A stretch of DNA of 64,000 bases from Escherichia phage LHE83. Within the stretch, counting starts at the first letter, position 1. Each line of letters opens with the position of its first letter. Of the stretch, positions 19,299-19,991 are shown in pieces. The stretch lies in the sequence record OQ561750. The stretch is one strand, 5' to 3'. The translations under genes were made by a program, and so were the position numbers. Under the pieces are notes generated by a model that was not told where the DNA came from, searched no databases, and worked only from the letters and a program-made list of their open reading frames with translations.

Positions 19299-19536
19299 AC
19301 AAACCGTTGAACAGAAACTGCAGTCTGAAATCGTTATCCTGAAATCTCGTATCCTTGATACTCAGGACCATGCACAGCGTGTTAAAGCTGATTGTGATAT
19401 GCTTACTAAAGTACTGGGTGAGATTGCTGCAGTAGTTGGCGTTACCGGTGATTCTGTTAAAATCGAAGACCTGGTTGAAGCCGTTAAAGCCCTGGTTCCA
19501 GAAGCTTCTGACGAAGAATATTCTGAAGAAGAATAA
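19291..19536 (+). CDS. 57A: Tail-fibre assembly chaperone gp57A
   Basis: 81 aa helical acidic protein (T4 57A 79 aa) directly after gene 1. Confidence 0.6.
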
Positions 19537-19991
19537 TGAAAACCGAAGATTTTGCTCAAGGTCTATACGTTGCTGCAAAATTCTCTGAATTAACTTTAGA
19601 TGCGCTGGAAAACCTTCAGCGCACTTTAAAGGTTCCTAATCCAGTTCCTCGTGAAAAATTCCATTCTACAATCTGCTATTCAAGAGTCAACGTTCCATAC
19701 ACCGTTGCATCCGGAAGTTTTGAAGTTGCTTCGTCAGGACATCTTGAAGTATGGAAACACGGTGATTCTCCTGTCCTGGTTTTGGTTCTCAATTCAGAGT
19801 ATCTTAAATGCCGCCATCAGTATGCTCGTACCTTAGGTGCTACGCACGATTTTGATGATTACACCCCTCATATCACCCTGTCTTATAATGTAGGACCACT
19901 TACCTTTAGTGGAGATGTCCAGATTCCTGTTGTTTTAGACAGAGAATATAAAGAACCCTTGAAGCTCGACTGGGCTGAAGACCTAAAATAA
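19536..19991 (+). CDS. 57B: gp57B; 2H-phosphoesterase fold protein (T4 57B is the anti-CBASS nuclease Acb1)
   Basis: 151 aa (T4 57B 152 aa); two H-x-T/S motifs (FHSTI and PHITL) typical of 2H phosphoesterases; synteny. Confidence 0.65.

Follow-up and report, generated by a model that had tools for sequence, protein, structure and literature searches.

Escherichia phage LHE83 carries, to judge from the sequence, an intact and clear ortholog of T4 gene 57B, the gene that encodes Acb1. In the window that we analysed (the whole stretch of 64 000 nt from sequence record OQ561750), it is an ORF on the plus strand at 19536..19991, which begins with ATG, ends with a TAA stop and encodes 151 aa. Homology, conserved residues, purifying selection and synteny are the basis on which we consider it very likely (probability about 0.93) that the product of this gene, here called acb1, is a functional Acb1 that would hydrolyse 3'-5'-linked cyclic di- and trinucleotide CBASS signals and block effector activation. 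The original prediction had named the ORF with these coordinates a 57B homolog, and with 85% identity to T4 57B it deserves that name. That T4 57B is Acb1 is confirmed by the study that used activity-guided fractionation to trace the cGAMP degradation seen in infected cells to this protein (PMC9117128). The further proposal of an Acb1-type anti-CBASS function is supported as well, with the activity of the LHE83 protein itself predicted by orthology.

The ORF matched the Pfam family PF23474 (Anti-CBASS protein Acb1) with 197.9 bits (E 8.4e-59) at a cut-off of 27 bits, and its residues 8-149 spanned positions 1-144 of the 144 positions of the profile. It also matched the crystallized Acb1 of phage FBB1 (PDB 7T26/7T27; E 1.6e-58, residues 9-148) and PHROG 755 (E 2e-66). 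With T4 57B (NP_049750.1, taken from NC_000866), BLASTP gave a gapless alignment in which 128 of 151 residues were identical (E 6e-100), and the protein has the size that had been expected for it, within one residue of T4 Acb1. Identity to FBB1 Acb1 (gene taken from MT920315) was 62% along the whole length. These full-length family matches rule out that the two H-x-T tetrapeptides of the ORF arose by chance. A single-sequence AlphaFold2 model was unusable (mean pLDDT 38.4, pTM 0.28). A 2H phosphoesterase fold is implied for the protein by the 62% identity to 7T26 over approximately 140 residues.

Homologs of the protein were detected by tblastn in 1470 phage records, and in 1460 of these at least 80% of the protein was covered. 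The records include phages of Escherichia, Klebsiella, Shigella, Acinetobacter, Vibrio, Aeromonas and other hosts. The protein is 100% identical to that of phage MX01 and one residue off that of Enterobacteria phage vB_EcoM_IME540. LHE83 is a T4-like coliphage of the Dhakavirus type: in the 6 kb around acb1, its DNA is 98.7% identical to IME540, a phage assigned to Dhakavirus (Straboviridae, Tevenvirinae), and 99.1% identical to QL01. Among the matches listed, the GenBank names for the gene are mostly 'hypothetical protein' or 'RNA ligase'. The NCBIfam search returned no model for acb1 or for the Acb2 homolog described below. The finding is already-known biology, as the enzyme was described in 2022, forms a Pfam family of its own and is represented by crystal structures. 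The original prediction had likewise spoken of established and not of novel biology, in agreement with the known enzyme family and the near-identical genomes already sequenced.

In T4 Acb1, the HxT/HxT tetrad of H44, T46, H113 and T115 carries out a metal-independent cleavage 3' of adenosine, which goes through a cyclic-phosphate intermediate, and an H44A/H113A mutant is inactive (PMC9117128). Bases are stacked by Y12, W74, F107 and W147, and an adenine is read by E141. A lid composed of residues 145-152 shuts over the ligand once this is bound, and W147 stacks on a base (PMC9117128). We checked by counting along the T4 sequence that the residue numbers in this paper are those of T4. All nine functional residues are identical in LHE83, where they are Y11, H43, T45, W73, F106, H112, T114, E140 and W146. 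The predicted HSTI and HITL motifs both align with the T4 catalytic residues: H43-S-T45-I (residues 43-46; 19662..19673, plus strand) corresponds to H44/T46, and H112-I-T114-L (residues 112-115; 19869..19880, plus strand) corresponds to H113/T115. In the alignment with T4 Acb1 that had been proposed as a check, the two catalytic histidines H43 and H112 are thus kept. The C-terminal lid comprises residues 144-151, LDWAEDLK (19965..19988, plus strand), with W146 in the place of T4 W147. Compared with LDWADDLK in T4, it contains one conservative change, from D to E at residue 149.

We also aligned nine members of the family with identities down to 31%. The alignment takes in T4, FBB1, a Krischvirus, an Acinetobacter Lazarusvirus, a Vibrio phage, a Pseudotevenvirus, a Klebsiella phage and the 440-kb Salicola phage SCTP-2, and the hosts belong to Escherichia, Erwinia, Acinetobacter, Vibrio, Citrobacter, Klebsiella and Salicola. 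Only 13 columns were invariant. Y11, H43, T45, H112 and T114 are among them, and so is P111.

At the DNA level, acb1 and T4 57B are just 72% identical. The proportion of synonymous differences was pS 0.773, which is saturated, and that of non-synonymous differences was pN 0.132, giving a pN/pS of ~0.17. As pN is far below the saturated pS, we conclude that the reading frame has been under strong purifying selection across the whole divergence between T4 and the Dhakaviruses. Inside 19536..19991, the remaining reading frames of both strands contain only ORFs of ≤104 aa, most of them far shorter. These were set aside because acb1, which they overlap, is strongly constrained by purifying selection in its frame. 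The 23 substitutions that separate the protein from T4 Acb1 are clustered at the N-terminus (residues 2-8), at residues 56-58 and at residues 75-80. Five of them fall into the last of these clusters, which reads HGDSPV in LHE83 and TQDGST in T4. This segment lies just past the base-stacking W73, and FBB1 Acb1 has an indel at the same place.

Acb1 cleaves 3'3'-cGAMP, cUA, cAAA and cAAG, although not cGG or 3'2'-cGAMP, and inhibits CBASS effectors; all nine further homologues that were assayed cleaved 3'3'-cGAMP and cAAA (PMC9117128). None of the Dhakavirus proteins (JS98, Bp7, QL01, MX01, WG01) is named among the assayed homologues in the text and supplements of that paper. Substrates, mechanism and the effect on CBASS are known from T4 and FBB1 Acb1, and we infer the same properties for the 85%-identical ortholog in LHE83. 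The acb1 product would accordingly be a small enzyme with a 2H phosphoesterase fold that works without metal and captures the signals made by CBASS cyclases of the host (3'3'-cGAMP, cUA, cAAA and cAAG). The bases would be held between Y11, W73, F106 and W146, one adenine would be read by E140, and the C-terminal lid would close. H43, T45, H112 and T114 would then cut 3' of adenosine via a 2',3'-cyclic phosphate intermediate. The linear product should be unable to activate CBASS effectors, so that cell death by abortive infection would be prevented and the phage could complete its cycle.

The genomic neighbourhood of acb1 is that of its T4 counterpart. Directly upstream are gene 1 (dNMP kinase; 18537..19298, plus strand; Pfam PF21448, E 9.6e-90) and gene 57A (tail-fibre assembly chaperone; 19291..19536, plus strand; Pfam PF17594 GP57, E 1.8e-28), and the predicted synteny of 1, 57A and 57B therefore holds, with the order as in T4. 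The complete gene order is 2, 3, 1, 57A, acb1, two internal-protein (IP) genes, trna.4, trna.3 and trna.2. The position of acb1 after genes 1 and 57A is also found in FBB1, Acinetobacter phage AB-Navy1 and Vibrio phage 6E35.1a. The TAA stop of 57A overlaps the ATG of acb1 (TAATG), which suggests co-transcription and possibly coupled translation of the two genes. Co-transcription of acb1 with both genes 1 and 57A appears to be the likeliest arrangement, and we infer the timing of acb1 expression from the arrangement of the genes alone. A scan of 16500..21000 for sigma-70 and terminator consensus sequences yielded matches at chance level (16 versus 14.8 expected and 3 versus 2.8, respectively, with the expectation taken from shuffled sequence), and no promoter-like site stood out directly before acb1. 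Because the scan did not exceed the shuffled level, we put no weight on the antisense promoter-like matches inside acb1.

Downstream, acb1 adjoins a variable IP locus, as had been predicted. It consists of two genes on the plus strand, at 20069..20293 (PHROG 8765, internal virion protein, E 4.7e-27) and at 20295..20567 (PHROG 7673, internal head protein, E 6.5e-56). Both are of the type whose products are packaged into the capsid and start with MK(T/S)YQEFI(T/A)E, like T4 IPII and IPIII. They are just 29-32% identical to T4 IPI, and there are two of them here versus ipI alone in T4. T4 acb1 adjoins ipI, whose product inhibits the restriction enzyme GmrS/GmrD, and this neighbourhood has been noted to resemble an anti-defence island (Hobbs et al., PMC9117128). 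A second IP locus of LHE83 at 32017..32912 (plus strand) is far closer to its T4 counterpart than is the locus next to acb1. It contains an ipIII ortholog at approximately 32017..32610 that is 87% identical to T4 and an ipII ortholog at approximately 32655..32912 that is 95% identical over 86 aa.

Two near-identical promoter-like boxes were observed on the plus strand at 20003..20048, preceding the first IP gene, and at 20570..20616, preceding the trna.4 homolog. Each is composed of GTTTACA, a spacing of 16-17 nt and TG.TACTATAG.CCTATCAAAACAAA, and the first box holds an inverted repeat, GGTCTATAG...CTATAGACC. Both boxes resemble early promoters of phages. No such box is present directly before acb1. 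Past the IP genes, the homologs of trna.4, trna.3 and trna.2 are followed by a tRNA-Met gene (anticodon CAT; 21966..22039), a segB-like GIY-YIG homing endonuclease gene (22081..22746) and a tRNA-Arg gene (anticodon TCT; 22752..22826), all on the plus strand, an arrangement that mirrors T4. The tRNA genes were identified by ARAGORN, which found only these two, flanking the segB-like gene, between 15000 and 30000; the equivalent region of T4 contains eight tRNAs.

We found that LHE83 also encodes a homolog of Acb2, the product of vs.4 (PMC12657218). The gene is located at 34958..35236 (plus strand) and its 92 aa product is 63% identical to T4 Vs.4, with matches to Pfam PF24729 (Acb2/Tad1 hairpin; E 4.1e-15) and to the Vs.4 structure PDB 7UQ2 (E 2.4e-28). 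Y8 and, in T4, F82 have been implicated in dinucleotide binding by Acb2 (PMC12657218). The LHE83 protein keeps Y8 and a C-terminal Phe equivalent to F82. By homology, the phage is thus equipped with both anti-CBASS genes of the T4 type, acb1 and an acb2 homolog, as is T4 (PMC10312549). The same stretch of early genes contains, at 36662..37114 (plus strand), a homolog of T4 Tk.4 that is 53% identical by tblastn; the T4 annotation of Tk.4 is that of a phosphatase bearing an A1pp motif.

Other interpretations of acb1 have to be weighed against a functional Acb1. The substitutions at residues 75-80, beside W73 and at the place of the FBB1 indel, might reflect a shift, in the Dhakaviruses, of the substrate range or the main target of an Acb1-family enzyme, for example towards cA3 made by type III CRISPR or further cyclic-oligoadenylate systems, or by the loss or gain of individual CBASS signals. 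The cleavage of cAAA could indeed counter type III CRISPR signalling, as PMC9117128 proposes. However, all reported ligand contacts are unchanged in LHE83, E140 included, the 75-80 segment is variable across the family with no known functional effect, and the nine further homologues assayed in PMC9117128 all cleaved both 3'3'-cGAMP and cAAA. We therefore regard such a shift as improbable. The same low likelihood attaches to the more specific proposal that the 75-80 cluster gives the Dhakavirus protein an altered substrate range and makes it a functionally distinct variant instead of a plain ortholog. If it did, the variant might hit signals that T4 Acb1 spares or escape a host sensing of Acb1 activity.

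Slightly less probable still is that the product is a general LigT-like 2H enzyme whose substrates are RNA ends, for instance in the repair of tRNA, instead of immune signals. RefSeq labels T4 57B and many of its orthologs 'RNA ligase' or 'RNA 2',3'-cyclic phosphodiesterase', and PHROG 755 is labelled likewise. The fold and the HxT/HxT chemistry are common to the LigT superfamily and Acb1, and the protein matches PF13563 (2_5_RNA_ligase2) weakly (E 0.062). That match, however, reaches 13.8 bits against a cut-off of 27 and is confined to residues 69-122, whereas the Acb1 profile scores 197.9 bits. The T4 ortholog is moreover the cGAMP-degrading activity of infected cells (PMC9117128), and LHE83 keeps the whole set of base-stacking residues and the lid by which the binding of cyclic oligonucleotides is defined. 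The label 'RNA ligase' is a name inherited from the superfamily, with no tested function behind it, and we rejected this RefSeq reading as the LigT match is below threshold. Least credible of all is a decaying or catalytically dead relic that is kept by its linkage to 57A. Acb2 in the same phage could make Acb1 partly redundant, but nothing speaks specifically for a relic. The ORF is intact and of full length with all catalytic residues in place, pN lies far under pS in the comparison with T4 (pN/pS ~0.17), and the protein is conserved in MX01 and, but for one residue, in IME540. A pseudogene or inactive relic was rejected on these grounds.

A functional Acb1 remains by far the preferred interpretation, and its main value is one of annotation: a gene named 'hypothetical protein' or 'RNA ligase' in most of the matches listed would be an anti-CBASS nuclease. 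No new biology follows from the acb1 finding. In T4, the pairing of Acb1 with Acb2 is thought to confer broad CBASS evasion (PMC10312549). The presence of both genes may be useful in the selection of phages against CBASS-bearing E. coli and in host-range prediction. The Acb2 homolog also indicates that the phage may be sensitive to Panoptes and similar defences based on decoy signals, for which Acb2 is the trigger (PMC12657218).

Compared with T4 Acb1, the LHE83 protein has the same catalytic tetrad, base-stacking aromatics and adenine-reading Glu, and the same lid but for the change at residue 149. The length agrees to within one residue at 85% identity, and the gene occupies the same slot after genes 1 and 57A and before one or more IP genes. 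It differs in that LHE83 acb1 starts at the codon matching the second Met of T4 57B, in that the overlap between 57A and 57B is 1 nt in LHE83 and 4 nt in T4, and in that it is followed by two IP genes, which are unrelated to T4 ipI beyond the N-terminal targeting peptide. The Acb1 of Erwinia phage FBB1, 62% identical, has been crystallized as apo enzyme (7T26) and with 3'3'-cGAMP (7T27), and the structures show a 2H phosphoesterase fold with a U-shaped pocket and a lid (PMC9117128). FBB1 Acb1 has one extra residue in the 75-80 loop, F at the position of W73 in LHE83 (W74 in T4) and Y at that of F106 (F107 in T4).

With the LigT/2H superfamily (PF13563), Acb1 shares two H-x-T/S motifs and a metal-independent acid-base chemistry via a 2',3'-cyclic phosphate. 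Its nucleobase-stacking pocket and its lid for cyclic oligonucleotides set it apart from LigT as a family of its own. Like Acb1, Acb2 (T4 Vs.4) works against CBASS by taking away its signals. Its fold and mechanism, however, are unrelated to those of Acb1, as the Acb2 hexamer sequesters the signals instead of hydrolysing them. The signals bound by Acb2 include some that Acb1 leaves uncleaved, 3'2'-cGAMP and cUU among them (PMC10312549), and Acb2 is the trigger sensed by the Panoptes system (PMC12657218). Finally, Acb1 has been likened to the poxins of poxviruses, as a viral nuclease that degrades a cyclic-dinucleotide immune signal of the host (PMC9117128). Our searches revealed no homology between poxins and the acb1 product. 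Poxins are proteins of animal viruses and are directed at the signal of the cGAS-STING pathway; they differ from Acb1 in their fold, and their target is 2'3'-cGAMP.
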